64,000 nucleotides of DNA from assembly GCA_051294905.1 (NCBI GenBank), contig CM119371.1:31064001-31128000 (forward strand), given 5' to 3'. The notes under the pieces are model-generated. The model ran no database searches and was not told the origin of the DNA. It saw only the letters and a program-made list of their open reading frames with translations. Position 1 is the first letter of the stretch. The number at the start of each line of letters is the position of its first letter. The translations under genes were made by a program, and so were the position numbers. The DNA is from Botryllus schlosseri. Taxonomy: Eukaryota. Shown piece after piece: positions 10,405-47,486 of the stretch.

Positions 10405-10893
10405 CCTATCTAAAAGAAAGGCCACACAAACTATCATAGATGGCTACGAGAGGAGAGCAAATGGAGGAACTGCTCGAACACTTGATTGCAGAATCAGAGA
10501 AACGCGAAAAATAAAGGGAAGATGAGTTGAAGAGATTGGAAGATCACCACAAAGAGGTGTTGCAGCGCATGGAAGCTGATTACAAAGATGCCATTGCATC
10601 TCTTATGGGGCAACTCAAGCCTAACTCGGAACGTTCGGAGGAAAACATCCAGTCACGTTTCTCCGAATAAACCACCAAGACTTGTGGCAGATATAGACAT
10701 AAAAGACTTTCGAGGGTGGGAGCAATTATGGGCGGATTATGCAACAGTTATGACACTAACGAGTTTACCGAACGGCGAACAAGTATCCCACCTTAAAAGA
10801 TTGTTCTCCCCAAAATTACTGGACACACTTATCCACGTATTTCATCCACAATATTCCGAACAAACCGATCTAACTGTCAAAGATATTCTAGAA

Positions 10894-12391
10894 CAGTGGT
10901 TCCCAACCTTTTTCGGTGTGAGGGCCGAATTTAAAATTTCAGAGTTCGGTCGGGGCCGCACGAATACTAGGGCAATGAAACGGACCAAAATAGTCATCAA
11001 AATATGAAAATCGGCATTGTTCCGATCAATCGCTTGACGCCATTAGCGATTGTTATGTTCATTGTGTTACCGCGCTCCCATTGTTCAGAACAATCGACCT
11101 TTGATGGCTATTTCGGAGTCGTTTTATTGTCCTGGCGAGATTTCAAAACTGCGTACAATGTTTACCGCTACTTATCTGCAGCATTGGGTGTCCATTGAGT
11201 GAATCGACTTTTCTCGCGTAAACGCGCGAAGCGCGAGAAATTTCTTTACTTCATGACTGAATCGGTCAATATGATCGGGAATTGCATATGTTGCTATCAA
11301 TTTTCATCCTGTCGCTGTTTACTTAACATGATGTACTGGTAGAGCTGAGTGAGGTGTGTTGGAAAAGGTAGAGGCCCCTCGATAATAATTAAAGATCTCC
11401 GTGGGTATTCCCGTTGGCAGAAATGTAACAGCATTTCGTCAGCCCCCGGGCTCCAATAGGGTGATAAACTGGCCCCGCATCACGTTTTTCGCTTTTGACA
11501 CGAAATTAAAGTTTTATTGTTTAGTGAGCCAGCGCGAAGCGCGAATATTTCGATAATTCATGATAAAATCGGTGAATAAGATCGGGAATTGCATGGTTGT
11601 CGTCTCTGCTCACGTAATCACATTTACCGGTAGAGCTGAGTGTCTTTGAAACTGTGGACCCCATAAAATTGAACATCTTCGGGCGTGCGGACCCCGTGGT
11701 ATGACTTCCTTACATGATGTTATTTCGTGACCTCTTGTCTGCTATATCAGAAAAAGTAGAATTGCCCAAACCTACTAAACTGAATGATCACACGATTTCA
11801 GATTGGTATTTCTTCACTGGCATATAATTTTTTTCCTGCGGGATGGTATTTGGCTTATGAGGTTCAGATTGCCAAGACAGGGACATTCGGCGACAGTCAT
11901 TTCGGTGCCTATATGGACAATAAAACCTATAGGTATTTTGTATATATAACGAAGTCTTTGGTCAGCATAAAAGCAGTCAACCAGTCAACCACCTGTTAAT
12001 GTGAAAGAAAAACTGTATTTTCTAGGAGTTGAGCCTATTTATATTTTTTAGTCAAACGACCACGAAGTGGGCAAAACTTACCATTTTTTAGGATTTTCCT
12101 CCGGTTTTGAAAGTTATGAATACCTATATATATCTATAGCTACTGCTCGTTCAACTGGAAAGTTAGGGCACATTGCATTGAAACAGCTGTGACGTAACGT
12201 TAGCAGTCTACTCACAACTTCCCTGCAATTATATAATTAAAAACTACAGAGGCCAAGCCAAGCAAGAGTATACCTATTTTATAAATATAAGTTTTTTTTG
12301 TCATAAATCGAGTTCTTACTATATTTTGGGGCCGCAAGAAGGCTATCTGGGGGCCGCATGCGGCCCTCAGGGCCGCGGTTGGGAATCACTG
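10894..12391. mobile_element. Non-autonomous hAT (Buster-type) element inserted in gypsy gag
   Basis: TIR CAGTGGTTCCCAAC / GTTGGGAATCACTG; exact TSD TTCTAGAA. Removing it joins ...TVKDILE to RIYKYLRDQRN... Confidence 0.93.
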
Positions 12392-14157
12392 TTCTAGAAC
12401 GAATCTATAAATACTTGAGAGATCAGCGGAATGTTGATCTTGATAGAGTGGAGTTTAAAGAACGCCAACAACGAGCTGGCGAAAGCTTTGACTCATCTTA
12501 TATGGATCTGAGGAAGATTGCCAATAATTCCGAACTTTGAAAGCATTGTTTTGAAACGCGTTTGACAATACGCATTATTTCAGGCGTCATATCAGGAGAA
12601 GTGGGAAAGGTCTGATGCAAACCAAATCCTTTCCCAGTTTGAAAGAAGCTGTGGACATATGTCGGAGTATGGAATCGGTGTCCATAGGTGACCAAGCCTT
12701 GGCGACTGCAAGTTCAGAATGGAATGGGCACACTGTGAGCAAAGTCATAAGGAGCAAGAAACCAGCGAGCAAAGGGGCGAACACATGTCGGAATTGTGGG
12801 TTACCTCATGCAGAAGCTGCTAGATGTCCAGCAGAAGAGGAATTATGCTTTTCTTGTAGAAAGAGTGGACATTTCTCTCGAATGTGCCAAGCAACAAACT
12901 TGCCGAAGAATATGGTGATAACATTCTAAAATCTATCGGGGCGTGTCGTTGAAAGAGCACCACCATCGGTATAGTCATTACTGTGTATGATGTTCGAGAT
13001 CGTAATTTGGGACGGCATGCTGTGTTGCCTGACAGTGGAGCGGGAATTTCAATCGCGTGCGAAGAGTGGATCATGTCGATCGGATTGAAACGTGCTGATT
13101 ATTCCAAGCCGCCTTGCGACGCTGTCCTTGCTGCAAATTTCCAGCCGATGAAATGCGTAGGATATGTTGTTTTGAAGATGGAATACGGCGGTAGGAAGGT
13201 GACTCTCGAAGTTCTCATCTGTAATGATTGCGAAGGAGCGATGCTTGCGTGGTATGTTTGTGAGGAGCTGAGAATTCTTCCGGCAAATTATCCGTCTCCA
13301 TTACCTATTGCGGAACAAGTAGTTACCGATAAACGAGACATGTTACGTGAGGTTATCGGTGATATACCTACAGAACCGGTCATGGCTGAGATCTGTCGAA
13401 TCGAGCAACGTATATTCCAGCATTTTGAAGACGTTTTCTCAAACGATGTCAAACTGTCGCCTATGACGGGTGCTGATATGAAGATACATGTCAAAGAAAA
13501 GTTTGAAGCTTATGCCACACACGCTGCACGGGTGGTTCCGTTTCCTCAGAGGAAAGATGAGAAAACTCTTATCGACGAGATGATAGTCAAGGGTATTATA
13601 GAACCGGTCACCTCGCCCACAGAGTGGTGCCATCCGATGGTACTGGTGCAGAAACCCGGTGGAGGTATACGTTTATGTGTTGACTTAACCAAATTGAACA
13701 AGTTCGTGAAACGTCCTGGATACCCTTTGGTGACAGCAAAGGAAGCTGTCGCGCAGATACCGAACAACACGAAGTACATTAGCACGTTTGATGCAACACG
13801 CGGATACTGGCAGCTCCCGCTATAGAAGGACTCTGAATTGCTCACTACGTTCATGACTGCTTGGGGAAAATTCAAATTTATACGCGCACCAATGGGCTTA
13901 TTTTCAACGGGAGATGAATACTGTCGCAGAGGGGACGAAGCACTGAGAGGGCTCCAGGATGTCGCAAAAGTCGTTGACGATATTCTTGTTCATTCCGAAG
14001 ACTTCAAGTCACGCGTCCATCGAGTATGGAGTTTTCTGCAGCGGTGGCTTGAAAATAAAATAACGCTGAACCGTAAAAAGACAAGATTCGCAAAAAGCGA
14101 AGTCAAATTTGCTGGATTCATTATATCCAAGTACGGAATATCTGTAGATCCTGATAA

Positions 14158-14212
14158 GAGCTTCTTGGAGGTACAGAACTTCAATTAAATATACTATTTA
14201 ATACTAATTAAT
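14158..14212. mobile_element. 55-bp AT-rich insertion with a 15-bp TSD in gypsy pol
   Basis: TGTAGATCCTGATAA at 14143-14157 and 14213-14227 flanks unique sequence; removal restores ...ISVDPDKVNAITEF. Confidence 0.8.
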
Positions 14213-17200
14213 TGTAGATCCTGATAAAGTGAACGCGATTACAGAATTTCATGCTCCGACCAACATCACAGAATTACGTAGCGTCATGGGAATGGTGAAT
14301 CAATTGGGGGAATTTTCGAAGGAGATAAGCACAGTGGCAAAGCCTCTTCGCTGTCTACTCGAAACGAAAAATGAATTCATTTGGTCAAGCGTACAGGCCG
14401 ACGCATTTCGGAAGACGAAAGCAGCATTGACTAATACATCTGTATTAGCAACATTTGATCCGAAGTTGCCCGCGAGTTTGCAAACAGATGCATCAAGGAC
14501 AAGAGGTTTGGGATACGCTCTATTACAGTTGCATGGTGACACATGGAGACTGGTTCAATGCGGCTCCCGGTTTATACGTGACACAGAATCGCGATATGCA
14601 ATGGTAGAGCTGGAACTTCTTGCAGTTGTATGGGCAGCACTCAAATGCAAACTATTTCTGACAGGATTTCAACATTTTGAAGTGGTTGTCGACCATCAGC
14701 CGCTAGTTTCCATTCTAAATGCTCAAACGTTGGATTCCATCGAGAACCCACGACTTCAGCGACTGAAAGAGAAGTTATCTGCATTTGTATTTACGACGTC
14801 ATGGAGAAAAGGAAAACTTCGTGCCATTCCTGATGCATTGTCAAGAGCGCCAGTGCAAGACCCAACAAGAGAGGATCAAGCAGCGGAAAGAGACGACGCC
14901 GCTTGCATGGCATGCCATCTCACCACCAAGAGCCAAATTTTCAGAAGAGAGCAAGCGGGTTGAATGCACTAGAAGACTTGGTCTTATCGCGCATGAGACA
15001 AGTTGCACTCACTGACAATAATTATCAGTCATCAATCGAGATTATCCGAAATTTGAATGGTGTAAATAACCATATTAGTCGACAGACACAATAAATACCT
15101 CAAAACAAGCGCAATGTCTTGATAAATTATTTTACCACGCGCAGCTTAATATTCTTCAATCCAATAAAATAAATTATCAAATGCTTCTCCTTGACATATT
15201 GATTCGCGGATAGAGTCACAATATTACTAATGAGGCAGCTATAGAATGTATGACTAGCCTACATCGGATGCGGCAGGTTGTTACAAATATGAAACATGAC
15301 TAGGTAGCCTAATATTGAAGTATCATTTTATATTAGGACCAATTCCTACAGCTACGTTGCACGTTTATGTTCAATACCTCGAAATAAATGCAATAAAACA
15401 GTATGGTATTGTTCAGGTTAGCTGAGGGCCTCATAAAAAGTACCAAATAAACGCATCGTATCTTCGCAAACATTTCTATAACATGTCATGTTTGCTACAA
15501 CTCCGCAAGCAACGTAGCACTCACGCAGCAAATAACATTACGGTCCATTAGTTCGGCTAAAGTACTTTTATCACGTTTCGGAAATTGACGCACCGACTCA
15601 TAAGTTAGAAGTACTTTACTCGAGTACCAAAACTGACTACGTTGACAGCCGCATATTAATTGTTAGCATTCGAAAGGTTCAAACTATTATTGTATGTGAC
15701 TGTTTAGGTCTCAACGTTCTTTGCATGCAATGCGGGAGAGGAGTAACGGTGTAAACATTTGACATCTGCTCGTGATTTTTTTGCAGGAATCGGAACCATG
15801 TCAGAATCCAAACCAACTGAACGTGAAAATACACACTTACGCAGTGCATGAGCTAAAGAGTGATAATAGTCGTTCGTGTTCGGTATACAGGTCAACTTCA
15901 AATTACTATCTCTCGCATCTCGCAGCATAACGGGGACAACACGCCCATGTTTTCCCACTAACCGAGACCTTTTCTGGGTTTGAAACTTCCCCAATGCTCT
16001 CCGCGCCTTTCAATGTCAGGTGTCATTTAAGTTAGAGTGCTAAATATGGGTCGGACACTACAACAAAGCTGCATTTGAAGATAAATTATGACTCGAGCAC
16101 GCTCGTCCAATTCTGATGGATTAAAATTTGAATCATTACACTTTACAATTTCAGCTACCAAGCCAGGGCCCATGTGACACTTGGGTATATAGTAACTTTG
16201 ACTGCTGTACCCGTTCGAAGCAAATAAGAAGAAAATTATCCTCCGCCGAGAATAATGGCTTATAATTCCGTGGTATAAGGTCGGAAAGGGAAATGGAGCA
16301 ACGTTTTGAACGAGGTATTAGTTAATGCTTGGTAGTGCGGAATCATGCGTAACTGTTTATTTGAAGCAACAATCTTTTTCCTCTTACACTTCTACGTTAC
16401 ATCAATCAAATAGTTGAGTAAGGCGTAGAGTAATAGTTACTAATGCAGCAGCTATTCATTATATTTGAAGAGCTTACATTGGCTGTGCAGCTCCGTTAGA
16501 ATACCGGCTCATCATTCGATAAAATGTCGTCGTATGAATTTACATCATTTCACATTCATTCAGCTTCCAAATAAATCTCCGAACAAATCAAATTTTAGTG
16601 CTCCATAAGACTACGCACTCAACGATTCATCTCTTTGCATACCAAGCACTTATAATATGCATATTTGTCCGATTTCCACGCGGCATGTATTCATGTATTC
16701 CTACTTCGAAATTTATTAGTCTTGTTAGTACGTGAACAATGCGACTTAGTGACAGGTATTATTATTCACAGTCAAATGGTGCCAACTGTTCCTAAATCTG
16801 ACAGTTGATATATCAATTTTGACAACATGAAATGCGTAAGAGGAGCGACCAGATAAACGTGGATATCACCTGGTAAATTACTTGCAATGTTAGAAGTCAT
16901 TTTGGGAATGGGAAATATCAGCTTAAAGCAGAAACACTTGCACGATGTGTACATTACATTGTAACAGTCGCCACTTGAATCGGATATTTCGGAGCATTTT
17001 GCACCAAGATCTTTAACGATGTAGGATTAGTGCGAACCTAGGTCTTTGGTATGCGCACCGGGATCCTGTTCGAAAAAAGCCATTGTAGTTTTTACCATGG
17101 GAAGATTTATCTGAATTGCACGAATCTACAGTAATCTTAACAATCAAATTCGATGAAATTTTCAAATCCTATCAATCGGTGTACTCAAGCGAGCCGGAAC

Positions 17201-20987: not shown

Positions 20988-21143
20988 GTCTATATAGATT
21001 ACTTATCTACCCATAGGTTAGTTATCTATAGTAATCTAGAGTCTGTCAGCCGTCGGTAATATCCGATGTAGGAACGAAGACATAGGTGCCGCCGTGCCGG
21101 CTTGTGACGGCATAATTAATACTTGTCAATTGTCGATAACACC

Positions 21144-23401
21144 ATAGTGTCCTATATGGTGTCGACACAAGCAAATCGCACGGTTCAATGAAATTGTATC
21201 ACGTCACAGTTTCCATTTGGCTACAGGCAATTTGACGGTGATTTTTGACCGGCTTGCCGAGCATTAAATTTGATGAATTGGGTATCAATCGAAAGCTGAC
21301 GCTGTACTGCCTTCGAAAATATAAATTTTATTCCACTCATGGCCCTGGAACCCTCACAATCAGCCCCAAATTATTCATTGTCGAGTAGATTGGCAGTGTG
21401 ACGCAACAATGCTGTCTGGCGAAACGAGACACTAGCTCAAGAGCAAGGATGCGGCCGAGCGGCGAGAGTGGGATCAGCTGACGTCGCGGCAATAGCAATG
21501 TGCAACCGCGCCACAGAGAAACGCTGCGCTGTTGTTACTTTTTCTATGTGCTTCGGTACAAGCGAGCACACACCAGCCTTTCCTCGACTTGTCAACGTTT
21601 ATAGTGATATCAGATATATTCCAGTGAAAAACAAAGGTATGAATTTGGTGGTAACATTTTGGAATCATTTGGCAGGTATGGCCCGCAAGCTTTCTAGTTA
21701 CGGATTGAATCCGGACAGCGATACCAGTTGATTCGACACTCCTGCTGTTAAACTTTATTCAACAATCAACATTTTACCTGCTGCATTCGCGGACTAAGTC
21801 CTACCGATACGGATAAAATAAAAGCTTGTAATGTATGCTCATTAGGGCTGTTCAAAAATAACTTTTTTTTCCTGATTCCAGCCATTCACTGATTAAATTG
21901 TCAGGTTGCCACAACAAAGGCTGCACACCAAATTTGGTTCAATTCGAACATGTCTAAGCGTCCGCAGAGCCAATTAAAATTTTTAAGATGCTACGTAAAA
22001 TTGAAAAAAAAAATTTCAAATTTTTCTCTCAACCCCATGAAAATGTTGAGATGTCTTCAAAGACCATGCAAATGAAATTTGAGTCAATTCCAACCAGTAG
22101 AAACGGAGTTATTTGACTTTTTCGTTGATAATTCTCGGATTATCCACGAATCAAGGATAATTGGAGAATTATCAACGAAAAACTCCAATAACTCCACTTC
22201 TACTAGTCCGAATTGAGTCAAATTTTATTTGCATCGTCTCTGAAGACAGCTCAACAATTTCATGGGGTTGACAGAAAAATTTGAAAAATTTTTTTTTTCA
22301 ATTTTCCTGTATAAATTAAAAATTTTAATTGGATCCGCGGAGCCCTATACTTGTTAGAATTGAACCAAATTTGGTGTGCAGCGTTTTTTAAGGTAACCTG
22401 ACGATTTAATCACTGAATGGCTGGAATCCGGAAAAAAAAGTTATTTTTGAACAGCCCTAATGCTCATGCTCAATGCTCCTTGCTCACACTTAACCATAAA
22501 AGCGACTATAGAAAGTATCGACACCCACCATCAACAGCGCCACGCATCTCTGGAGCCCTGCGCAACAAGCGGGCTAAGGCAATCGATATCATAATAATCC
22601 GACATATCTAATGTAGACTACTTAACGTAGCCTACATATCTCTATCAGCTGAAGGATATTGCACGAAAATTGGTAGGGCCCTAATACATTCTGTGGACCC
22701 AGTTCTACCCTTACAAGTCAAGGAAAGGCTGGTGTGTGCTCGCTTTTAGCGAAGCGCCTATAGAAAGTATCAACAGCGCCACGCATCTCTGGAGCCCTAC
22801 GCAACAAGCGGTCTAAGGCAATCGATATCATAATAATCTGACATATTTAATGTAGACTACTTAGACGTAGCCTACATATCTCTATCAGCTGAAGGATATT
22901 GCACGAAAATTGGTAGGGCCCTAATACATTCTGTGGACCTAGTTCTACCCTTACAAGTCAAGGAAAGGCTTGTGTGTGCTCGCTTGTACCGAAGCACATA
23001 GAAAAAGTATCAACAGCGCAGCGTTTCTCTGTGGCGCGGTTGCACATTGCTATTGCCACGACGTCAGCTGATCCTACTCTCGCCGCTCGGCCGCATCCTT
23101 GCTCTTGAGCTAGTCTCTCGTTTCGCCAGACAACATTGTTGCGTCATACTGCCAATCTACTCGACAATGAATAATTTGGGGCTGATTGTGGGGGTTCCAG
23201 GGCCACGAGTGGAATAAAATTTATATTTTCGCAAGCAGTACAGCGTCAGCTTTCGATTGATACCCAATTCATCAAATTTAATGCTCGGCAAGCCGGTCAA
23301 AAATCACCGTCAAATTGCCTGTAGCCAAAAGGAAACTGTGACGTGATACAATTTCATTGAACCGTGCGATTTGCTTGTGTCGACACCATATAGGACACTA
23401 T
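21144..23401. mobile_element. Long-TIR (~450 bp) non-autonomous DNA element, MULE-like or P-like
   Basis: 21144-~21590 is a near-perfect inverted copy of ~22953-23401. TSD is 9 bp GATAACACC, or 7 bp ATAACAC if the ends are CATAG/CTATG. Internal ~240-bp tandem duplication at ~22507-23015. Confidence 0.88.
21843..22459. mobile_element. Fully palindromic (fold-back) MITE
   Basis: TAGGGCTGTTCAAAAATAAC / GTTATTTTTGAACAGCCCTA; arms pair imperfectly to the centre at ~22150; exact TSD ATGCTCAT. Confidence 0.92.
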
Positions 23402-25587
23402 GATAACACCATAATTGCACTAAAACGCACTTCACTCTCCATGCCATTGCTGTGCACAGCATTAAAATTCAGGCCTGCTGTTCAATTATGATAAATTAGC
23501 AGATGTGGTTGTTGCATATATAATAGCATCTTATGAAATACGTCGAGCCGGAGCTATTCCCCAAAAAACGGGCTCCAGCTCCGGCTCCGGCTGAATCTCA
23601 TGTAGAGCTCTGGCTGCGGCTCCAGCTCCGGTTAAAATGCACGGCTCCGGGGATCCGGGCTCCGGCTCCAAAGTCCTGATTGTCAAGGTTCATGATCGTT
23701 TAATGAGGATTTGTGTATGCTGCCAGTGCCATGTACAGAGTGGCCCGCAGTTGAAATGCAACACATTTTAACCAAAGATGTTAGAATGAAGTGAAAATAG
23801 TTATATATGAAAAAGGTTCACAGTGCAGAACCTACCAAGGTTCGTGTGTGAACGTGAACCTCTAAATATCAGAGGCTCACACACAGAACGCGAACGTGAA
23901 CCTCACGCTCACACCATCCCTAGCTTGCAGAGAGTTTCTACCATGAAAGTGAAATTTTTATCTGAATATATTGACATACTTTATTTATCATCCAATCAAT
24001 CCAAGTTTGCCAACCCCAGAAAGATGGTCATGAAACTACTTGTTCTGTTCGGTTCTACAGGCCAACTCATTTCCAAGCAGATATTTCCGACCATCAAGAT
24101 TCATGAGAGAAGACTGCGTTCCGATATAACTAATGTTCCCGTGTATGCTATACTAATGGTTTCTAAATCCGACAGACAGCCGGGCTTTAAAAACTTGTCG
24201 ACTACTTTGACCGACCACCAATGTCTGATTGACCTCAACAGCTGTCGAAGTAGGCTACATTAGTTTGATAAATATAATATATACTTTTATTGGCCTCTAT
24301 GGTTCAAAATTTATATTAAAAGCGATTTAGTCCTTATAAAGGTGGATAAATACGCTATGTATCGATTATTTATTTCCGCTCGTCAACTACTTAGGTTTCC
24401 AATATCATTTAAAATGCGCCTTTACCACTGTTGCTACAGTGTCTGCTGATAGGTACTGTCTGCCTGTCACGCCGTAAACGCTAACTGAGCACACGCTTTT
24501 CAAATGCGATGAAGTATCAGGATGGTAACCAAATCAACAGTATCTTTATATGATGGTCGAGTAATTGATCAACACACGTTTCTGTCCGTAGTTAACCAAC
24601 AGTTATTTGATATCCAACGAACATTCGGTACTATAATAAGTATCGGTGAACGACCAAGCATTTTTTCTGCCAGGACTTCCGTCGAAACGGAATACCACGG
24701 CCCTCATGAGTTAGTCTTCTTCGTTTTGTTATATTCTGCAAGATCTCATGAATAAGTCAAATATTTGAAAAAGGTTTAACAATTTTTTTTTCATGGCTCT
24801 AATTCTTATTGCATCATTTATAGTGTTGACAAACGTTACATTAACGTCGACCCGAAACTATGTAGCATGCTATTTAGGTAAGACTATCCCATTAAGTAGC
24901 AACGATATTTCAAAACTCTCAAGTCGAAGCTAATGTCAAACTAGATAAAACTTATCAAAAAAGGTTGATGCGGTCAGTAATGTTACATGGGTGGATTAAA
25001 ACAGTATTGTTACCTATTCGATATATATTCCCATACCTATTCCCATATAAACGCCTGACGATTAAATGTTGGAGACCGCAGTCAGTGCTCATAACTTAGG
25101 CCTTTAGAATATTATCAACAATAGCCCGATAGTGCGGGTTCACGCGTAGCTTTTTCATCGAAGCAGCAAGCTTATTTTCTCCCTTCTGCGTGACACTGAG
25201 CAGCATTTGTGAGGCGTTGAGGAATATTTAATGATGCAGCAACTACGGATTCCAGCGAGATAGCGAAGTGGTGTAATCCATCGCCACAGCACTGATGGGT
25301 TGCGATTACGAGCCCGACCGAAGTCGACTCCAGAATTTCAAACCAAAGTGATTGAGTTTGTACAAGCTTTTCCTCGCCACCACATCATTGTAAGCGGTGT
25401 CCTACGACAGACTAATAAGTGGTCCTTCCTACAGGTAGGGCTTTGGAGCCGGATCCCCGGAACCGTGCATTTTCACAAGAGCAATACCAAAAGCCGTAGC
25501 TCTACATGAAATTCATTTGGAGCCCGAGCCGTAGCGGGATCCAGTTATTCAATCTTTCCTCCTTGTCGCTATCTTTTCCGTCTGGCC

Positions 25588-32900: not shown

Positions 32901-33737
32901 TCAATTACAATTAAAAGTAGTAATTTCTAAGACATGTAAAAACTACTTCAAGGGGAAGACGAAACGAAAGGTCTGATAATTACTAAAATTCATTAAATAA
33001 CGAAGTATATTGGTCGAGGGTAGGGTGGCCGCATACTTTCAACAGTTAGTCGGAAATGGCTACATACGGAATCGCAGGACGTATCAGTAGTATGAGTAAT
33101 GTGCGGAATCCCCCCAGTCGCGATTTATAACCAACAAACAAAGATTATCAAGATAATAAGTAATTAAAGATTTACCTCATTATCAATTTTGCAGCAATAC
33201 TTTTATGATCCTGTGTGCGGCAATCAAAAAGGGGGATTAACGCTAGAGAGAAAAAGAACAAAGAATCCCGATTGACATTTGTACTCTGGCCAGACACGAA
33301 ACTTGGGATTTATTATATTAAACTGTAATTTTACTGTATTTTTCCACGATCCACAGCTGACTTCGTACACGACGGTGATAATAGTTGCATGGCCTGGCCT
33401 GTTGTTGCGTGGTCCAATTTCGTGGCTTGGGAGCAATAGCCCGTCAAACTGGTTGATTTGTCGTTCCGCGGTTGATTCAATTTCGTGTACGGTGGCTCAT
33501 ATGAATAATTGTCGGTCGTGACATCAGTATAGTTTTCTTCTGATCCATGAGATCCTGGTGCCTGTTTTATGAGTCAATACGTTTGGCTGTGTATAGTGAA
33601 GCTTGTGTCCTGTCTCATACTTGTCCACCTTTTGCTTTTTTGTTGCCTTAAATAGTAAAGAGAAATGATCTGCTAATTGTTATAAATATGTGTGTTATTT
33701 CGAGTCATATCGAGAACCAGAAAGAATGACGTGTATT

Positions 33738-34003
33738 CAGAGGTGGTCAGTAACGAAGTACTTCTACTTTTTGAAGTACTTGAAGTAGATTTTGCCTACT
33801 CGAACTACTTTTTAAGTAGTTATGATTTTAGACTACTTCTACTTCTACTTGACAGTTTTCAGTTTTGTAGGCAAAAATAAGCGTAGAATGCCTACTTACT
33901 TACTTACTTGTGAACCAGCACTCCTACTTCTACTTGAGTAGAAATCCCGGCGTTACTTCTACTTCTACTTGAGTAGCGACGGTGACTATTTTGACCACCT
34001 CTG
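33738..34003. mobile_element. hAT-type MITE with CTACTT repeats, left arm only
   Basis: CAGAGGTGGTCA / TGACCACCTCTG; exact TSD CGTGTATT; empty site in the right arm at ~41761-41790. Confidence 0.95.
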
Positions 34004-34869
34004 CGTGTATTAGAAATGTGTATTAGTCGCCCCCGACATAGATTAACTTAAATAAAGTAACATTGTGAATATAATAAGTAATTTAAAGAAATAGCTGATT
34101 CTCAATGTGGCTTACATCAATGTGTTAATTTCCGATATTACGTACCTAGTAATTGGTGCAAGCAACAACTGCTGTTCCACACCTTTACCGCTTTCTAGCG
34201 TCTTAGGATAGACAGTCCTAACCAAACAATGTATTTATGAAGGGTTCTTGTACTGCTTCACGTCTGGTCAAGCGTAATCATGCCGGTGTCTGTAAATGAT
34301 ATACAATTTACCGCGGCATATTATTTTTGTATGCTGTACATGATGTACAACTTGAATCGATCAGGTGGCGAACTAATGCTTTACCCGTCTGTACGATATA
34401 TATCGATCGCGAGCTCACCACGCACTTGTCGTTGGAGAGCGACTAATTTCGCTATAGACAATCAGTTGTGTTCGCGTGTACCGTAACATATCCTCAACAC
34501 TTGTTATACCAACACCTCCACGCATATTTACAATATCATACTAAGGATATATTGCTTCGGCAGCCACGCACTGTCGTTCGAATTCGACTAATTTCGCTGC
34601 AGACAATCAGTTGTGCTCGCGTGTGCCGTAAAATATCCTCAACACGTGTTATGCCAACACCTACAAAGCATATTTGCAGCATCATACTACGGATATATTA
34701 ATTCGGCGGAGTGTTACCGTCAGAGAATTGCTGTGTCACGCCTTCGAGCCTCGCATTTTCCGTTCGAACTCGGTAACTGCGATTACGATGTCAGATTCAG
34801 TTGTATAGTGACGAATCGGGATAGCTCGCTTCATCGGGGATCAGTGGGCTTACCTTATTTTGCTGAAAC

Positions 34870-36016
34870 AACTCGATCACACGACTGACGTTTCCGCAGA
34901 TCAATTTTTGGCGTTTGATCAACTCTTGTCTGGTTATGGGGTTTCTAATCACAGGACGATTGAGATTCGGGTGTGTCTTTTCGATACGTTGCGCAAACTC
35001 GATACCTTTCGTTCGGATTACGTATTCACACTGCGGAAAACATTTTGCATGTTCTGTCCAAACCTCGTCTTCACGGTCCCAACGAATCCCCCCGTCACAG
35101 TAAAAGCATTTGGTTCTGTCCGAATCGACGTAGTAAAACCCCGCTTTTGCCAACTGTTCAACACTAGCCTTAATTTTATTCGGTTCCCAGCCCTTGTCGA
35201 ACGTTGCGATTCTTTTTGACAACGACGACATGAGAGGATTCACGGGGTTAAGACAAGGAAATAGTTGCTCAAGACATCGCTTTTCGTCCTCGGTGGTTTC
35301 CCGTGGTTCTTGCAGATGTAGAGTGAGACGTCGTATTTTGTCGCCGAGCAAATTATCCAAATTGTCTCGTTCGTGCTCGGTTAGCGCCACATTCCCCGAA
35401 TCGTCGCCACGTGCGAAACAACAATCCGGGTGATACGGCAAGTGTATTTCAGATACATCGTCTGTAGGCCTCCAATTGCGGAGTACGCCGGAGCAGTTAA
35501 AGCACTGCGTTCTGTCCAGGTCACCGAGGTAGAATAAACCTTGTTTTGCCAACTCGCCGACCGCCCATGGTATGGGATAGCTGGGCCATTTCTCAAAGGT
35601 TTCGCGAAGCTTCGACTCCTTTCGTGCTCTTGATCAACGATATTCGCAAAGTTGATGTCGGCGTTTCCAACGGCTTTAAACTGTCTCAATAAACTTTTGA
35701 AATTCGATTTCACAATAGGTATGTTCAACGCGTCTCGTACACAATTCGCGTCATGACGCCGTGCACTCGAACCGGTCCATCGTTCGAGGTACACACTGCA
35801 CCCAAAGCATTTGATTTTGTCTTCAAACCCTAGCAAGTAGTATCCTTACGACGCTAAATCGATGCGTGTCGCGTATGCTACGTTGGAGAATTTGGCGAAC
35901 GTGGCGAGTCTGTACAATTCACTGCGGTGTCAACCGGAAGCGATACACGCGCGTTTCTGTCCGGGTGGATCAGAGTATCTCTCCATTGACGTTATGCCAA
36001 GCTCTTTCCTAAGCAT
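34870..36016 (-). pseudogene. Intronless inhibitor-of-apoptosis (IAP) pseudogene with three BIR domains
   Basis: BIR1 RLATF...KIKCFGC, BIR2 LAKQGLFYLG..DRTQCFNC...H..YHPDC, BIR3 RIATF...LAKAGFYY..DRTKCFYC...EHAKCFPQC. Stops at ~35931 and ~35847, frameshift near 35610. Confidence 0.93.
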
Positions 36017-38229
36017 GGAGTGCTAACACAGAGCTTTTGTGTCTAAACCTGCCCTATAGGTCAACCGAGTCGGCTCACACATATATTCCTAGTTTATCCT
36101 TGAGAGCTGTATAGATTACTGGTTTGCTGTACTTTTATGGCTGATTGACAACCGTTAGCTGTCGCTATTGCACCATTTACATATGTATTTACCAGGAGCG
36201 GGCAACTTTTGCAGTCAGCGGGGCGTGTATAGCATGGTACCTCGGCGGTGCGAATTGCTGAGTCGATATATTATTCGACCACCGATCAACATATACGAGG
36301 AATAAATCGTATTCAATGTATTTTAGCAATAGCAATGTCACTACAAAGCCGTTTTTCGTTGATAGTAACGAGGACAATGTGGATTTGAGAACGGTATTTT
36401 TATACAGGCACCGCCATGTCTGCTTCTTTTTAATCAATTAACACACGGTGAAATACTTAAATAAGATTTCATAGTGGTCTATAAGCTCGATACCCTAAAT
36501 TGACAGAGATATCAATTCATTAAAGTTGTTTTCTAACGATATTACAGACAACAATGCGTACCAGTAAACACACACCGAATTGTCACACTGTTGCGTCAAT
36601 TCCCCGACGACTCAGTATGAGACACTCTCGACCAACGAATGTACATTGGGCAACCGAAACAGGTGACCTTGCGTAGCGGGTATTTTCGATAACACCGATA
36701 CGGCAACTTTATACTGACAATGTGATGGAGAGCGGCTTAGTTCATCAGACAAAAACTGGAAGCAACAACGAGTAAAACACAAATCTAATGACCACACCGA
36801 CATTCACAGGTATTCGATAGACCTGATCATACCGAGGTCACCCAACTTTTGTATGGCACGGGTACGAAGCGGATACGAAGCATTTTGAACGGCTTTGCTC
36901 AGTCGTGGTTCTTGGCCTTCTAAGGCCTCTGTTAGCATCAGCCTATGTCACTGTTTGGAGTGCCATTGGCAAACGTCGCAATAGTGATCACTCGGTCATG
37001 TGTAGAATATAGAAATTGACGCCTGGCCTATTTGCACGACCTCATGACTTTGGTAAACTTACTAAAGCGGAAAGTCACAAAGTCACTGCCAAGTTGGACA
37101 TTGATTGATCGTTCTCTTGTTAGCGTCGATATTCGCTCGTACGCGCTTTCATGCCTTAGCATGTTTGTTATCATCGAGTGTGGTCATAAATAGACAGGGG
37201 GACAAATTTGATGAGGTCGTGCAAATAGGCCAGGCGTCAATTTCTATATTCTACACATTACCGAGTGATCACTATTGCGACGTTTACCATTGGCACTCCA
37301 AACAGTGAAATAGACTGATGCTAACAGAGGTCTTGGAAGGCCAAGAACCGCAACTGAGCAGCACCGTTCAAAATGCTTCGTACCCGTGCCATTACAGAAG
37401 TTGGGTGACCTCGGTATGATCGGGTCTATCGAATACCTGTGAATGTCGGTGTGGCCATTAGATTTGTGTTTTACTAGTTGTTGCTTCCAGTTTTTGTCTG
37501 ATGATCTAAGCCGCTCTCCATCACATTGTCAGTATAAAGTTGCCGTATCGGTGTTATCGAAAATACCCCGTACGCAAGGTCACCTGTCTCGGTTGCCCAA
37601 TGTACATTCGTTGGTCGAGAGTGTCTCATACTGAGTCGTCGGGGAATTGACGCAACAGTGTGACAATTGGGTGTGTGTTTACTGGTACGCATTGTTGTCT
37701 GTCATATCGTTAGAAAACAACTTTAATGAATTGATATCTCTGTCAATTTAGGGTATCGAGCTTATAGACCACTATGAAATCTTATTTAAGTATTTCACCG
37801 TGTGGTAATTGATTAAAGAGAAGCAGACATGGCGGTGCCTGTATAAAAATACCGTTCTCAAATCCACATTGTCCTCGTTACTATCAACGAAAAACGGCTT
37901 TGTAGTGACATTGCTATTGCTAAAATACATTGAATACGATTTATTCCTCGTATATGTTGATCGGTGGTCGAATAATGTATCGACTCAGCAATTCGCACCG
38001 CCGAGGTACCATGCTATACACGCCCCGCGGACTGCAAAAGTTGCCCGCTCCTGGTAAATACATATGTAAATGGTGCAATAGCGACAGCTAACGGTTGTCA
38101 ATCAGCCATAAAAGTACCGCTAACCAGTAATCAATACTGCTCTCCAGGAGAAACTAGGAATATACGTGTGAGCCGACTCGGTTGACCTATAGGGCAGGTT
38201 TAGACACAAAAGCTCTGTGTTAGCACTCC

Positions 38230-38922
38230 ATGCTTAGGAAAGAGCTTGGCATAGCGTCAATGAAGAGATACTCTGATCCACCCGGACAGAAACGCGCGTA
38301 TATCGCTTCCGGTTCACACCGCAGTGAATTGTACAGACTCGCCACGTTCGCCAAATTCTCTAAAGTATCATACGCGACACGCACCGATTTAGGGAATGTG
38401 GCGCTAACCGAGCACGAACGAGACAATTTGGATAAGTTGCTCGGCGACAAAATACGACGTCTCACTCTACATCTGCAAGAACCACGGGAAACCTCCGAGG
38501 ACGAAAAGCGATGTCTTGAGCAACTATTTCCTTGTCTTAACCCCGTGAATCCTCTCATGTCGTCGTTGTCAAAAAGAATCGCAACGTTCGACAAGGGCTG
38601 GGAACCGAATAAAATTAAGGCTAGTGTTGAACAGTTGGCAAAAGCGGGGTTTTACTACGTCGATTCGGACAGAACCAAATGCTTTTACTGTGACGGGGGG
38701 CTTCGCTGGGACCGTGAAGACGAGGTTTGGACAGAACATGCAAAAAGGTTTCCGCAGTGTGAATACGTAATCCGAACGAAAGGTATCGAGTTTGCGCAAC
38801 GTATCGAAAAGACACACCCGAATCTCAATCGTCCTGTGATTAGAAACCCCATAACCAGACAAAGAGTTGATCAAACGCCAAATATTGATCTGCGAAACGT
38901 TAGTCGTGTGATCGAGCTATGA
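38230..38922 (+). CDS. IAP copy in the right arm: open 230-aa frame with one intact BIR after an internal deletion (may be a pseudogene)
   Basis: ATG-to-TGA ORF; BIR1 N-terminus is fused to the BIR2-3 linker at ~38390; BIR3 keeps CFYC...EHAKRFPQC. Confidence 0.75.
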   Translation: MLRKELGIASMKRYSDPPGQKRAYIASGSHRSELYRLATFAKFSKVSYATRTDLGNVALTEHERDNLDKLLGDKIRRLTLHLQEPRETSEDEKRCLEQLFPCLNPVNPLMSSLSKRIATFDKGWEPNKIKASVEQLAKAGFYYVDSDRTKCFYCDGGLRWDREDEVWTEHAKRFPQCEYVIRTKGIEFAQRIEKTHPNLNRPVIRNPITRQRVDQTPNIDLRNVSRVIEL

Positions 38923-40387
38923 GTTAAATAGTGTCGATAAAACGATTGTAGTGTATCACCACCTTTTTGCGAAACTTGTGTAAGTGTGTCTTTTGTGCTG
39001 ATAACACTACCGAAAAATTAGAATGAATTTCGTGAATCGTAAAATTATTTGAGCAATAAGAAGATGACGGGGCCGCAGTGGCTTACTACGAGAGTCAGTC
39101 GGTGTGAATCAGCAGGCGCGTGGTCAGCTACGAAATACAGTCGCTATTTCTGAGGGACTCGAGTCAGTTTTGTTTACTATCACAGTTACCAACGTGCTTG
39201 TGCTCGACAGTTTTATGGGGACCTATTCTTTTATAATTGGGATTGAAAGCGATTTCACTGTACCGACATTTCTTCAAAACTACTTGAGTACTCCAAAGCT
39301 ATATTTTGTCCTTTCATTTGAAGTAAATTTAGCATGTGTTGTAAATGGCTCCATCTATCTCGATAACCTCGCTAGAATGAGTAGTTTCGTCTGGATCTGC
39401 AGTTCTCAGCACGTTGTGCATACACAGAGAGAGGGAATGCAGTGGCGACTTGCTCTAGTCGAGTAACGGGCGATGTCGATTTCACACGCATTCCAAAGTA
39501 CATCTTGTGAGAATGATGTACCACCACCCCGGCTATTCTAGCTACGACATTGGATCATTTGGCTGTACTAAGGTGGTATACCCCGACATGGTCGAGTGCG
39601 CTCGACCTTTTTCATGTAACGGTAGTTTGGGTCGCTTTTACTATTCACATGTTTACACAGGCCCCCGTATCCACGTAATAACCTGCACAATACAATCATA
39701 GCGTCATTTTTTCCGATTTGGCTACCTAAATACCCGAGTTCCGTAATCTAGGCCCGCATTTTGCGTTACTCGTGGTGTTTTTTTGGATATTTAAAGCTGA
39801 CAAGGAGGACAAATTGATAGAAAGAGAGTACATTTGGGCGAAGGGGTGACATATCTGGGAAATGGAGGACATATGCTCTCCTAAATGAGGCCGTATGGTA
39901 ACCCTATTAAATAGGAGGGTCGACGGGGACATCAAATGAATCGCATTGTGTTGCTGTCAACCAGAAAACTCGAGTTTTGTCAAACATGCGGATTGATGAC
40001 TGACATCAATTTTGTCACGCTCGATTGATCACAGCGGATTTGCGTACATCACACCACATCGAAATTACAAGTATTCGAACGACAAATTTGTTTGTTTGTT
40101 GGTAGGGTAAAGGTATTATCGTTTTGTGGTTGATAGGGCTTTGCTAATATACTTTTTATGGTGCTAACCTGATTGCACTAATAACACCTGTATAGTTGAA
40201 CATAATTCCGCCAATGGGTCGATACAAGGTTTCGCTGTACGCAAATGAATATGCAACGTCATCTCCATATCGTGTAAAGATAGTAGAACTATCGTGCCTG
40301 GAAGGGGGTGGAGGTCACTTAAACGTTTCCAGACCTCAAATTTCATCGGTTTAGCAAAGCCAGGGCTCGATACGGTCAAGTGTCCTG

Positions 40388-40960
40388 GAGAGTCAGATTT
40401 ATCCTCTAATTTGCGCTCGCTATATGTAGAAGTAACAGGACTTTACGTACCGGCCGTGGTTAACCCCAATTTGGCCCGCCAGAGTCGGGGGGCGGGGGGA
40501 TTCGGATTTCGAAATATCTCACTCATCTTTACACCTCACCGAAGGTAGACTAGATTGTATCACGTATGATCTGTCACAATTCATCCCCCATTATTACACC
40601 CCCGAAACCGAGCAAAATAAGGCCAGTCAGCTGATCGCCGGTGAAGCGAGCTATCGCCGGACTGGATGCAGCCAAATGGTCTTGAGAGTCGGATTTATGC
40701 TATATTTTGCCCTCACAACATGTGGAAATAACAGGACTTTACGTGCTAGCCGGATTTTTTGGACTTTGATTTGGCAACCCGAGTCGGGGTGGAGTCAGAT
40801 TTTGAAATCTTTCATTCATCTTTACACCTCACCGAAAGTAGGCTAGATTGCATCACGTATGATCTGACACAATTCATCCCCCATTATTGCACCACCGCAA
40901 CCGAGCGCGTTTCATCAAAATAAAGTAAGTCCATTAATCCCCGATGAAGCGAGCTATTCC
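40388..40960. repeat. ~297-bp tandem duplication inside the right arm
   Basis: gagagtc.gatttat, aacaggactttacgt and catctttacacctcaccgaa...cacaattcatcccccattatt recur in units starting at ~40388 and ~40685. Confidence 0.85.
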
Positions 40961-42819
40961 GATTCGTCACTATACAACTGAATCTGACATCGTAATCGCA
41001 GTTACCGAGTTCGAACGGAAAATGGAGGCTCGAAGGCGTGACACAGCAATTCTCTGACGGTAACACTCCGCCGAATTAATATATCCGTAGTATGATGCTG
41101 CAAATATGCTTGTAGGTGTTGGCATAACACGTGTTGAGGATATTTTACGGCACACGTGAGCACAACTGATTGTCTGCAGCGAAATTAGTCGAATTCGAAC
41201 GACAGTGCGTGGCTGCCGAAGCAATATATCCTTAGTATGATATTGTAAATATGCGTGGAGGTGTTGGTATAACAAGTGTTGAGGATATGTTACGGTACAC
41301 GGGAACACAACTGATTGTCTATAGCGAAATTAGTCGCTCTCCAACGACAAGTGCGTGGTGAGCTCGCGATCGATATATATCGTACAGACGGGTAAAGCAT
41401 TAGTTCGCCAACTGATCGATTCAAGTTGTACATCATGTACAGCATAGAGAAATAGTATACCGCGGTAAATTGTATATCATTTACAGACACCGGCATGGTT
41501 ACGCTTGACCAGACATGAAGCAGTAAAAGAACCCATCATAAATACGTTGTTTGGTTGGGACTGTCTGTCCTAAGACGCTAGAAAGCGGCAAAGGTGTGGA
41601 ACAGCAGTTGTTGCTTGCACCAATTACTAGGTACGTAATATCGGAAATTAACACATTGATGTAAGCCACATTGAGAATCAGCTATTTCTTTAAATTACTT
41701 ATTATATTCACAATGTTACTTTAATTAGGTTAATCTGTGTCGGGGGCGCCTAATACACATTTCTAATACACGTCATTCTTTCTGGTTCTCGATATGACTC
41801 GAAATAACACACATATTTATAACAATTAGCAGATCATTTCTCCTTACTATTTAAGGCAGCAAAAAAGCAAAAGGTGGACAAGTATGAGACAGGTCACAAG
41901 CTTCACTATACACAGCCAAACGTATTGACTCATAAAACACGCACCAGGATCTCATGGATCAGAAGAAAACTATACTGATGTCACGACCGACAATTATTCC
42001 TATGAGCAACCGTACACGAAATTGAATCAACCGCGGAATGACAAGTCAACCAGGGTGGTTTGACGGGCTATTGTCCCCAAGCCTCATCACGAAATTGGAC
42101 CACGGAACAACAGGCCAGGCCATGCAACTATTATCACCGTCGTGTACGACCGATGTCAGCTGTGGATCGTGGAAAAATACAGTAAAATTACAGTGTAATA
42201 TAATAAATCCCAAGTTTCGTGTCTGGCCAGAGTACAAAGTTCAATCGGGATTCTTTGTTCTTTTTATCTCTAGCGTTAATTATTTTCTCTCTAGCGGTAA
42301 TTATTCCCCCTTTTTGATTGCCGCACACATGGTCATAAAAGTATTGCTGCAAAATTGAGAATGAGGTAAATCTTTAATTACTTATTATATTGATAATCTT
42401 TGTTTGTTTATTATAAATCGCGAATGAGGGGATTCCGCACATTACTCATACTACTCGTATCCTCTCGGCTAACGCGATATGTCTATAATGACCCTACCCA
42501 TTGGTAGAATCTAGGAAAATATATTCAGTTACCGCGCTTTAGGGGCTGTGCCACGCAGTTTTAATGAGCATATAACTCATGAGAATGGTGCCGTGTTTTC
42601 TGTATTACCAGTCGATATTCGCTGCGCGCAACCAATATTTAACCGACGTCCTGCAAATACTCGACAGTTCTTTATCCCATCGCAAAAAAAGACTTCGGCA
42701 CGCACTGCGATCCATCCACAGACGGAAATTCGTGGTATCTACACGCCGAGCCTGGATAGATATACACAATCTTGACAAGTAGCCTATACTCGACCAGCAC
42801 CATTTTACGGCGCTGCATG

Positions 42820-46049: not shown

Positions 46050-47486
46050 CATGTGACGGGGAGATAACTATGACTGGTCGGATCAGAGGCGTGGCGACAA
46101 GGGTTGAAGAGGCGGCAGAGTATTAAATCGTACGAGTGTGGTGCGGGCTGCACCCGCGTGACCTTGTAGGGCAGGCCGAATACCGCCACCTCTACAACAA
46201 TACCTTCGTCAACACGATGACGGGACTGATTGGCTACCTCAGAGGGCGACAGAACTTAATCCAGGAAATGAAAAGTACATGCCCCAAGTTTGTTGACACC
46301 CGTTGGTTGTCAATGAAAAAGGTGACCTCTTGGTTGACTGGACACCGTACAAAACTGCTCGAGGATATGGACGAGAAAAGTCCGGCCTGTGCACCTTCGC
46401 CACAGTGGCGGATCCAACTGATCGTACTCGATCGCCTGTCCACCGATCTGAGCACCACCGTCACGAAGCTTCAGCTACTTGGCCTTCTCATCGTGTAGCA
46501 GCATGATGAGCTCCAGCGCATGGTCCAACGCCTTCGAGTTCTGTGCCCCGCTGAGGAGTGGGACAATGACAGCCGCGGCAAGGAAGGTTTTCTGGTCAGA
46601 GGGTGTTGGGCTGTCAAGTTCACTCAGGCACGCAACTTCGTGGAGGATCAGGGTTGTGCATTCCTCGACCTTCTCGATAACATCAACGAAGAGGAGAAGC
46701 AGTCCATGTTCGAGGCAGCTTGGAGCCTCATTGCAGGGCTTATCGACGGCATAAAGAAAATTGAAGTTGCCGACAAAGAGAGGGTCCCACCCTGTCTACC
46801 ACACCAAGTGGTGAAACTTCGTGGATGCGAAGTGAGAGAACACAACAATTATGTCTTGCTCTTTTAGATTCTAATATTATAACCAACAGTGATATATATA
46901 CTTTATTTGCAGCCCAGAGAATTGATCTAAAACACCGGGATCGGCTGTCGAACAAGTGGACACCCGAGGAGATACAAAATATCGAAGACCAATTCCAATC
47001 CATGTCTCTCCGATAACAATACGGATGTCAATTTCAAGCGCATCATTGACGAGTGCTTGTCAGGAGCAAAGGCTTGGAAGATTGAGGAGTTTGGAGAGCT
47101 TGAAGCCATCCGACGGTTCAGTGGACCCCTGGGCTCGATGTTCCCACAACTGCGACGGTCGAGGCCGATTTCTCGAAAATCAAGTGCGAGAAGGGTCTCG
47201 ACCGAGCGTCGCTCACGGATATTTCTTTGGAGGGCCTTCTCCAGGCCAAAGACTTTGTGACCAATGTGTTGTGAAGTTAGATTGAGAGCACTGATGATGT
47301 TGATGTGTCGGAGGCCTTGAATTCATGATAATGACTTACTTTTTGTGAAGTTTTCTGGTAATAGTAGTAGGGCTAAAAACACCTGAATTTCTTATTTTTG
47401 AAAATTCTCCAAAAATAAAATTTGAAAAAATCCAAAACTATGCAATTTTTGTGATTCTTGGAGAAATCCAAAAATAAACAGGCCTG
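46050..47486 (+). pseudogene. 5'-truncated hAT-like transposase and element end
   Basis: DGEITMTGRIRGVATRVEE, VWCGLH (CxxH), DTRWLS, PPCLPHQVVKLRG, and C-terminal MFP/TTATVEADFSKIKCEK...SLTDISLEGLLQAK. Stops and frameshifts present; possible terminus ...AAACAGGCCTG at 47486. Confidence 0.8.

Follow-up and report, generated by a model that had tools for sequence, protein, structure and literature searches.

Maverick/Polinton elements (adintoviruses) are defined by (AGT)2...(ACT)2 or (AG)3...(CT)3 ends with terminal inverted repeats and a 6-bp target-site duplication (available sections of PMC8097293). Some are known to carry cargo related to cell death: adintoviruses are reported to have homologs of Bcl2 and of inhibitor of apoptosis (IAP) genes, the latter as labels on maps that, in the sections available, are not tied to species (PMC8502044). 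Host-type cargo, in that case WASP and KRMA, is also described for nematode Mavericks, which have core genes and a single cargo near one end (10.1101/2022.07.12.499685, in part). In planarians, Burro giant Gypsy retrotransposons contain a BIR domain and BCL2-like motifs and are proposed to tamper with host apoptosis (PMC6431247, in part). Dispersed intronless IAP copies are numerous in bivalves and arthropods, where the available text reads them as retrocopies, and IAP expansions of marine invertebrates are usually ascribed there to host adaptation by tandem duplication or retroposition (PMC7831173, PMC13159474). Here we analyze two IAP copies in a 64,000-nucleotide stretch of Botryllus schlosseri DNA (the window; assembly GCA_051294905.1, contig CM119371.1, forward-strand positions 31,064,001 to 31,128,000), and show that they are the cargo of a palindromic DNA element.

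This element differs from each of these systems. Unlike described Mavericks/Polintons, it and its relatives are palindromes without polymerase, integrase, ATPase, protease or capsid genes; their inverted repeats span nearly the whole 9–15 kb, and each of the two arms brings its own copy of the cargo. Burro is a long terminal repeat (LTR) retrotransposon with its BIR inside a polyprotein, whereas here a stand-alone open reading frame (ORF) lies in a DNA element that has no enzyme of its own. In contrast to the copies interpreted as retrocopies in bivalves and arthropods, those studied here lie within a DNA element with defined ends and target-site duplications. Among titles and abstracts (Repbase and subscription papers were outside the search), we found no report of palindromic non-autonomous Mavericks or of such elements amplifying IAPs, and no publication joining Polinton, IAP, BIR and apoptosis. 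The available text of PMC8097293, PMC10748475 and 10.1101/2022.07.12.499685 has neither 'palindrom' nor 'non-autonomous' in its wording.

The element is a 9,370-bp palindrome at window positions 33086-42455, centered at ∼37130 by self-comparison. It begins with AGTAGT and ends with ACTACT, and the same 6 bp, CGTATC, flank it on the left (33080-33085) and on the right (42456-42461). The left arm (33086-37054) and right arm (37202-42455) are separated by an unpaired central spacer of 147 bp (37055-37201). Arm alignment shows that the left arm has gained a 266-bp insert and lacks 1,990 bp that are present at 38919-40908; over the 3250 positions that align, there are 110 mismatches (3.4%). No ORF for a Polinton gene (polymerase B, integrase, capsid, packaging ATPase or protease) was found in the element by ORF and Pfam scans. 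Because the ends and the 6-bp duplication match the Maverick definition and Polinton genes are absent, we classify it as a non-autonomous element of the Maverick type. The two IAP copies sit inverted, one per arm, and point outward.

Relatives of the element are spread across the genome. A search with the left IAP copy returned 382 candidate stretches; the 40 that were scored are 92–94% identical (window excluded), and many form divergent inverted pairs. Copy numbers here and below are lower bounds, the scored matches being the best 40 of 382 for DNA and 69 of 492 for protein. By coordinate count, at least 31 loci on 14 contigs bear the IAP. Ten relatives of 9.7–20.7 kb, chosen by end similarity, all have AGTAGT...ACTACT ends. 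The 6-bp duplication is perfect in nine and matches at 4 of 6 positions in the other, so that 10 of 11 elements, including that of the window, have a perfect duplication. Palindrome arms are 4–7 kb long, and the main arm blocks of the ten relatives are 99.2–100% identical within an element, with inner blocks down to 95% in two. The window copy is the most decayed of the 11 elements compared. These data bear out the proposal, made in the first-pass annotation of this DNA, that the IAP is mobile-element cargo. They also speak against a one-off retrocopy; 5 of the 10 relatives carry the IAP.

Gene content is otherwise sparse. Apart from the IAP, the only long ORFs in the ten relatives are short unknowns and those of a single Pao retrotransposon insertion, to which the sole integrase belongs; no ORF of ≥150 aa resembles a Polinton gene. 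The remaining ORFs of the fetched palindromes match no Pfam family above cut-off, two weak GIY-YIG matches (E 0.02–0.04) aside. The Pao insertion, in one arm of a related palindrome (L039, 3375-9080), retains an open Pao/BEL polyprotein of 1902 aa. Genome-wide, the end motif has 307 matches versus 93 for a reversed control, which suggests that about a hundred elements share this end type, not all of them with an IAP.

The family ORF has 382 codons, no introns, three BIRs and no RING. All five open family ORFs scanned (382–419 aa, stop to stop) contain three PF00653 stretches and no RING. Aligned to a natural family ORF, the left window copy (34872-35986, minus strand) is a pseudogene that covers codons 1–381 of 382, with BIR3 at 35019-35213 (minus strand, Pfam PF00653). 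It had been described as carrying stops and a frameshift and as lacking its 3' end. The lesions are there (a 28-bp deletion near 35621 and stop codons at 35932 and 35848); the 3' end of the ORF is not missing, and it is the non-coding tail that is absent from the left arm. The right copy (38260-38922, plus strand; Pfam and alignment) is an open frame of 220 codons with BIR3, half of BIR1 and one Pfam BIR match; BIR3 lies at 38575-38769 (plus strand, PF00653, E=9.7e-20). Its reported loss of about 460 bp is real, at 458 bp when measured against the left arm and 486 bp, in frame, against the family ORF (junction 38385-38392), and it removed half of BIR1 and the entire BIR2 rather than most of both. 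The lesions of the two copies are not complementary in any functional sense: the left arm by itself spans nearly the whole ORF, and both arms have merely decayed, independently of each other.

A sister palindromic family is present in the same genome. It has three-BIR frames of 388–411 aa at 14 or more loci, and at the DNA level the fetched copy shows 75% identity. Eight of the 14 loci are convergent inverted pairs 0.6–1.6 kb apart, for example L054 (G000:C6:10856500-10858500).

To assess constraint on the cargo, we compared 18 distinct gap-free copies of the family ORF. The ratio of non-synonymous to synonymous polymorphism (pN/pS), corrected with the transition bias of the flank, is 0.35 (95% confidence interval 0.24–0.51). 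This stricter set replaced an earlier count in which gapped copies were retained (30 and 23 rows; 0.28; private versus shared variants, p=0.004). Shared variants comprise 42 synonymous and 30 non-synonymous changes, where the neutral synonymous share is 0.26 (p=9e-9). Private variants comprise 32 and 43, respectively, and include all 4 stops. Among the BIRs, pN/pS is lowest for BIR3 (0.21), followed by BIR1 (0.32). Hence the family ORF evolved under purifying selection, and from the ratio of 0.35 it follows that the cargo was selected during the spread of the family.

A non-autonomous element depends on a helper, and a candidate exists in the same genome. This 17,829-bp element has AGTAGT...ACTACT ends, inverted repeats of ∼236 bp (98% identical; much shorter than the 4–7-kb palindrome arms), a 6-bp duplication and an internal, weak match to an A32-like ATPase (E=0.006). 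Elsewhere in the genome, an ORF resembles protein-primed DNA polymerase B (pPolB; E=1.4e-5, short of the Pfam cut-off). It is therefore probable that this genome contains Polintons. Judging by the ends, a Polinton integrase and protein-primed polymerase would move the palindrome in trans.

Expression was assessed in single-cell sequencing runs, in which the sense strand is assigned by the rule for second mates in such libraries. In run X21, 150 of 22.2 million reads align, and ∼90–100 by depth form a sense-strand pile over the ORF's 3' end and the tail. Their alleles fit two family elements at 21 of 22–23 sites and the youngest group at 5–6 of 23. Such sense RNA is only suggestive, because the palindrome lets host read-through also yield sense RNA from one arm. 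None of the other three runs gives usable support. Reads from run X20 were rejected, as they match over ∼35 bases and then continue into another IAP gene, and those from run X1 were set aside because they may hold DNA. A second RNA pile, with loose ends, lies upstream of the IAP on the central side of an arm (L012, 974-1251); it apparently comes from another repeat that shares that stretch.

A structure model of the family protein built from a 20-row alignment reached a predicted local distance difference test score (pLDDT) of 78, compared with only 31 for a single-sequence prediction. Among single domains, it matches the BIR3 of cIAP1, ML-IAP and XIAP best, at a root-mean-square deviation of 1.2–1.9 Å (1.4–1.6 Å for cIAP1 BIR3). 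RING-less IAPs are generally stable. The product of the family could not ubiquitylate itself or its partners and, going by fold and constraint, would most likely be a stable protein that binds IAP antagonists or caspases via BIR2/BIR3. This would keep cells alive while the element or its helper replicates in them, and copies with the IAP would be favored. We hold with moderate confidence that the decaying palindrome in the window is an old copy of a non-autonomous element of the Maverick/Polinton type whose RING-less IAP cargo benefits the element.

Several observations weigh against this explanation. The IAP is dispensable in cis: among the 10 elements picked by their ends, 3 have only fragments of it and 2 have none. 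Of 38 full-length arms, 27 are open, with no stop or frameshift, but this count comes from 40 scored stretches out of 382 and is skewed toward those that match best. In the clean set, the difference between private and shared variants falls short of significance (Fisher p=0.07), and BIR2 is weakly constrained (pN/pS 0.65). In the protein, the zinc spacing of BIR1 is atypical, and BIR3 has two one-residue gaps, one presumably in the region of the peptide-binding groove, that only the two palindromic families share. The RNA is sparse, with 30 of 30 X23 reads fitting only partly, and read-through of host transcripts may explain the RNA of X21. As for the helper, the ends of the 17.8-kb element and those of the family have no BLAST match, agreement stopping at the hexamer; and by inspection of the 100 ends listed out of 307, no end pair encloses any of the 67 ATPase matches.

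A rival explanation is that the element is as described and the IAP is a passenger, its constraint stemming from host benefit of a few expressed copies that happen to seed new ones. We regard this as unlikely. In its favor, relatives lacking the IAP have still moved and have intact ends, one element has a stop in both arms, and the RNA alleles match one subfamily rather than the youngest group. What argues against it is that constraint falls on variants shared by many dispersed copies. Moreover, the sister family, at its level of DNA divergence, keeps an open three-BIR frame at its 14 loci, indicative of long retention inside mobile DNA.

An improbable alternative holds that the palindrome is a foldback or cut-and-paste transposon of another superfamily, with Maverick-like ends, which captured an IAP as Pack-MULEs capture genes. 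No fetched copy has a Polinton gene, no helper with matching ends was found, and the nearest relatives of the IAP adjoin Merlin/IS1595 transposases, all of which such an origin would accommodate. Yet (AGT)2...(ACT)2 ends with a perfect 6-bp duplication, seen in 10 of 11 elements, are the Maverick signature, and a Polinton-sized element of this genome has the identical hexamer and duplication length.

The first-pass annotation had combined the two arms into one compact BIR-BIR-BIR-RING gene, pointing to a broken RING-like tail at 38930-39026. A degenerate RING remnant does lie past the stop codon of the right copy (38917-39030, plus strand), in two frames with stops, and is non-coding. In Pfam searches of the tail (∼38920-39030) in three frames, with stops read as X and E≤10, no match was found. 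In a single frame it scores 1.6 bits against a general RING profile, where shuffled frames reach 6.5. When a single frame switch was permitted, with X placed at each break, the score rose to 11.1 bits (control maximum 7.9; 57 natural and 60 shuffled controls), and to 13.4 bits against a clade RING profile (control maximum 11.6; 160 controls). The corresponding tail of the sister family scores 25.1 bits against the clade profile, a clearer remnant; most of the other 26 family tails fall inside the control range. We read the window tail as a weak, correctly placed remnant of a RING that was real and is now dead, and in the ancestor a short linker probably led to a RING.

That a live BIR-BIR-BIR-RING gene is split between the arms is nonetheless very improbable. 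Although a remnant stands in the expected place, weakly here and clearly in the sister family, the RING is broken in 28 of 28 distinct tails scored, and open family ORFs terminate ahead of it. No read joins the ORF to a RING, in sparse data. Because the remnant is broken in every tail scored, the two window copies do not sum to a working gene with that architecture, which is ancestral. By these profile and frame comparisons, the live product of both palindromic families is RING-less.

The two arms of an element resemble each other much more closely than they resemble the arms of other elements. ORF identity is 99.7–100% within 12 arm pairs and 94.5–99.7% (median 95.9) between elements, which indicates that one arm was copied from the other. 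One element has an identical stop codon in both arms. The bases that follow AGTAGT vary among elements and yet agree at both ends of most, and some elements have central spacers in common (92–98% identical). A fold-back replication model, the racket model, exists for Polintons. Copying could occur at or between transpositions, by replication of a folded single strand (fold-back or template switch) or by later gene conversion. Conversion is not continuous, since the arms of the window copy have diverged. That the palindromes are assembly artefacts from fold-back reads is scarcely credible: the arms of young copies are ∼100% identical, as such reads would give, but elements have distinct flanks with target-site duplications and spacers conserved between elements, and the window copy has arm-specific deletions, an insert and 3.4% divergence.

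Where the IAP came from was addressed by homology searches and phylogeny. The best homologs are ascidian BIR-BIR-BIR-RING proteins, with Styela clava reaching 45% identity over 94%. Ascidian IAPs (S. clava BIRC7-like, 574–635 aa; 40–45% identity over 93–94%) and vertebrate cIAP/XIAP share with the family protein three BIRs in the same order and the BIR3 fold; compared with ascidian IAPs, the family protein misses ∼190–250 aa of linker and the RING, and has the two BIR3 gaps. IAPs on viral contigs are 24–33% identical to it, a single-query search returned none, and a metagenome scan gave 14 distant loci and no close relatives. By sequence, the family IAP is ascidian-type, not viral-type. The gene probably descends from an ascidian BIR-BIR-BIR-RING IAP that lost first the linker and then the RING. 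The idea of a host-derived IAP in a virus-like element thus holds for the protein and for the Maverick-type ends; the element itself is a gene-poor non-autonomous palindrome, not a virus genome.

The intronless state of the gene is weak evidence of capture, because three matches to family-B DNA polymerase in this genome also lie in uninterrupted frames of 1075–1455 aa (G000 C5:11747469, C11:12224684 and C16:22340523) and no intron-bearing parent was found among the 69 of 492 candidates scored. The polymerase frames suggest that host genes without introns are frequent in this genome. What looked like a host gene with two exons on C2 was rejected, being a copy of the full-length, RING-bearing family split by an insertion with direct repeats. 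Whatever the route of first capture, the present spread of the IAP is by the element.

That full-length family forms a second group of 26 dispersed loci, with an intronless IAP of 555–583 aa and an intact RING; a few are broken among the matches scored. A Merlin transposase lies within 4 kb of the IAP at 25 of 26 loci, and a second transposase 19–52 kb upstream at 26 of 26. The sole 10-kb context fetched (L051, G000:C3:31138900-31148899) is gene-dense, with 32–39% GC and ORFs on one strand for leucine-rich repeats, an IS1595/Merlin transposase, an E2 ubiquitin-conjugating enzyme and unknowns. Together these features describe a repeated, low-GC unit of at least ∼20–30 kb with two Merlin/IS1595 transposases, a full BIR-BIR-BIR-RING IAP and a set of unknown ORFs of ∼155 aa with only 2 database relatives. 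An atlas search with one unknown ORF gave scores of ≤0.85 only, and no family-B polymerase match was found near the unit. It may be a cargo-bearing transposon of giant size or else an endogenous virus. Separately, L055 (G000:C1:3170400-3172300) and similar pairs are broken RING-only remnants in AT-rich DNA, arranged as convergent inverted pairs ∼9–13 kb apart; no BIR was found in the 1.5 kb upstream in the single copy fetched. They may represent yet another family of palindromes.

A maximum-likelihood tree built from 384 columns and 20 rows of the BIR region places the two palindromic families in one clade (100/100), sister to the Merlin-associated, RING-bearing IAPs at 92/93, below the starred level. 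The non-mobile IAPs of this genome (RING clusters on C12, C5 and C2) lie outside the tree, so this sisterhood may merely reflect a common host lineage. The tree also includes a 644-aa ascidian-type BIR-BIR-BIR-RING protein (P0012) from a 167-kb contig that is assigned to the bacterium Endozoicomonas ascidiicola. The protein falls among ascidian IAPs and may be a horizontal transfer to a symbiont or contamination.

Other features of the window can be listed briefly. The insert of the left arm (33738-34003, 266 bp) is a miniature inverted-repeat transposable element with 12-bp inverted ends CAGAGGTGGTCA and an 8-bp duplication CGTGTATT, from whose length we assume it to be of hAT type. By self-comparison, that arm also has a 145-bp tandem pair (34418-34707), mirrored at 41070-41358, and the right arm has a tandem pair of ∼296 bp (40363-40957). 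Outside the palindrome, an unrelated 2.3-kb foldback element (21143-23402) has CATAGTG...CACTATG ends, contains a 240-bp tandem pair and is flanked by a direct repeat of 9 bp, by which it is presumably Mutator-like. A decayed LTR retrotransposon gag-pol lies at 10500-15000, with zinc knuckle and reverse transcriptase–RNase H matches. GC-rich broken ORFs at 46100-47300 have no Pfam match and resemble a decayed transposase.

For B. schlosseri, these data give a concrete DNA-element route to dispersed intronless IAPs. Mobile elements had been suggested as a route of IAP family expansion, and this one has indeed amplified an IAP. At least 71 IAP loci appear to belong to mobile or repeated elements: Maverick-ended palindromes account for 31, inverted pairs with ends unseen for 14, and loci beside Merlin transposases for 26. 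This is a warning for gene counts. A bolder version of our preferred explanation, which we put forward as a doubtful one, is that Polinton viruses have true satellites in these palindromes, which would resemble defective genomes of the copy-back kind and became lasting selfish lineages by recruiting anti-death genes. Their IAP would have been taken from, or shared with, the giant Merlin-transposase element, trimmed to a RING-less, degradation-resistant decoy and carried twice. The finding opens two matters to test: whether selection can favor a gene-poor satellite for its anti-death cargo, and what keeps the two arms identical in Maverick-type palindromes. If the satellite interpretation is true, and the IAP is expressed in the germline or stem cells, cell survival would be biased to carriers, and a large part of the IAP expansion would be selfish cargo, not host adaptation.

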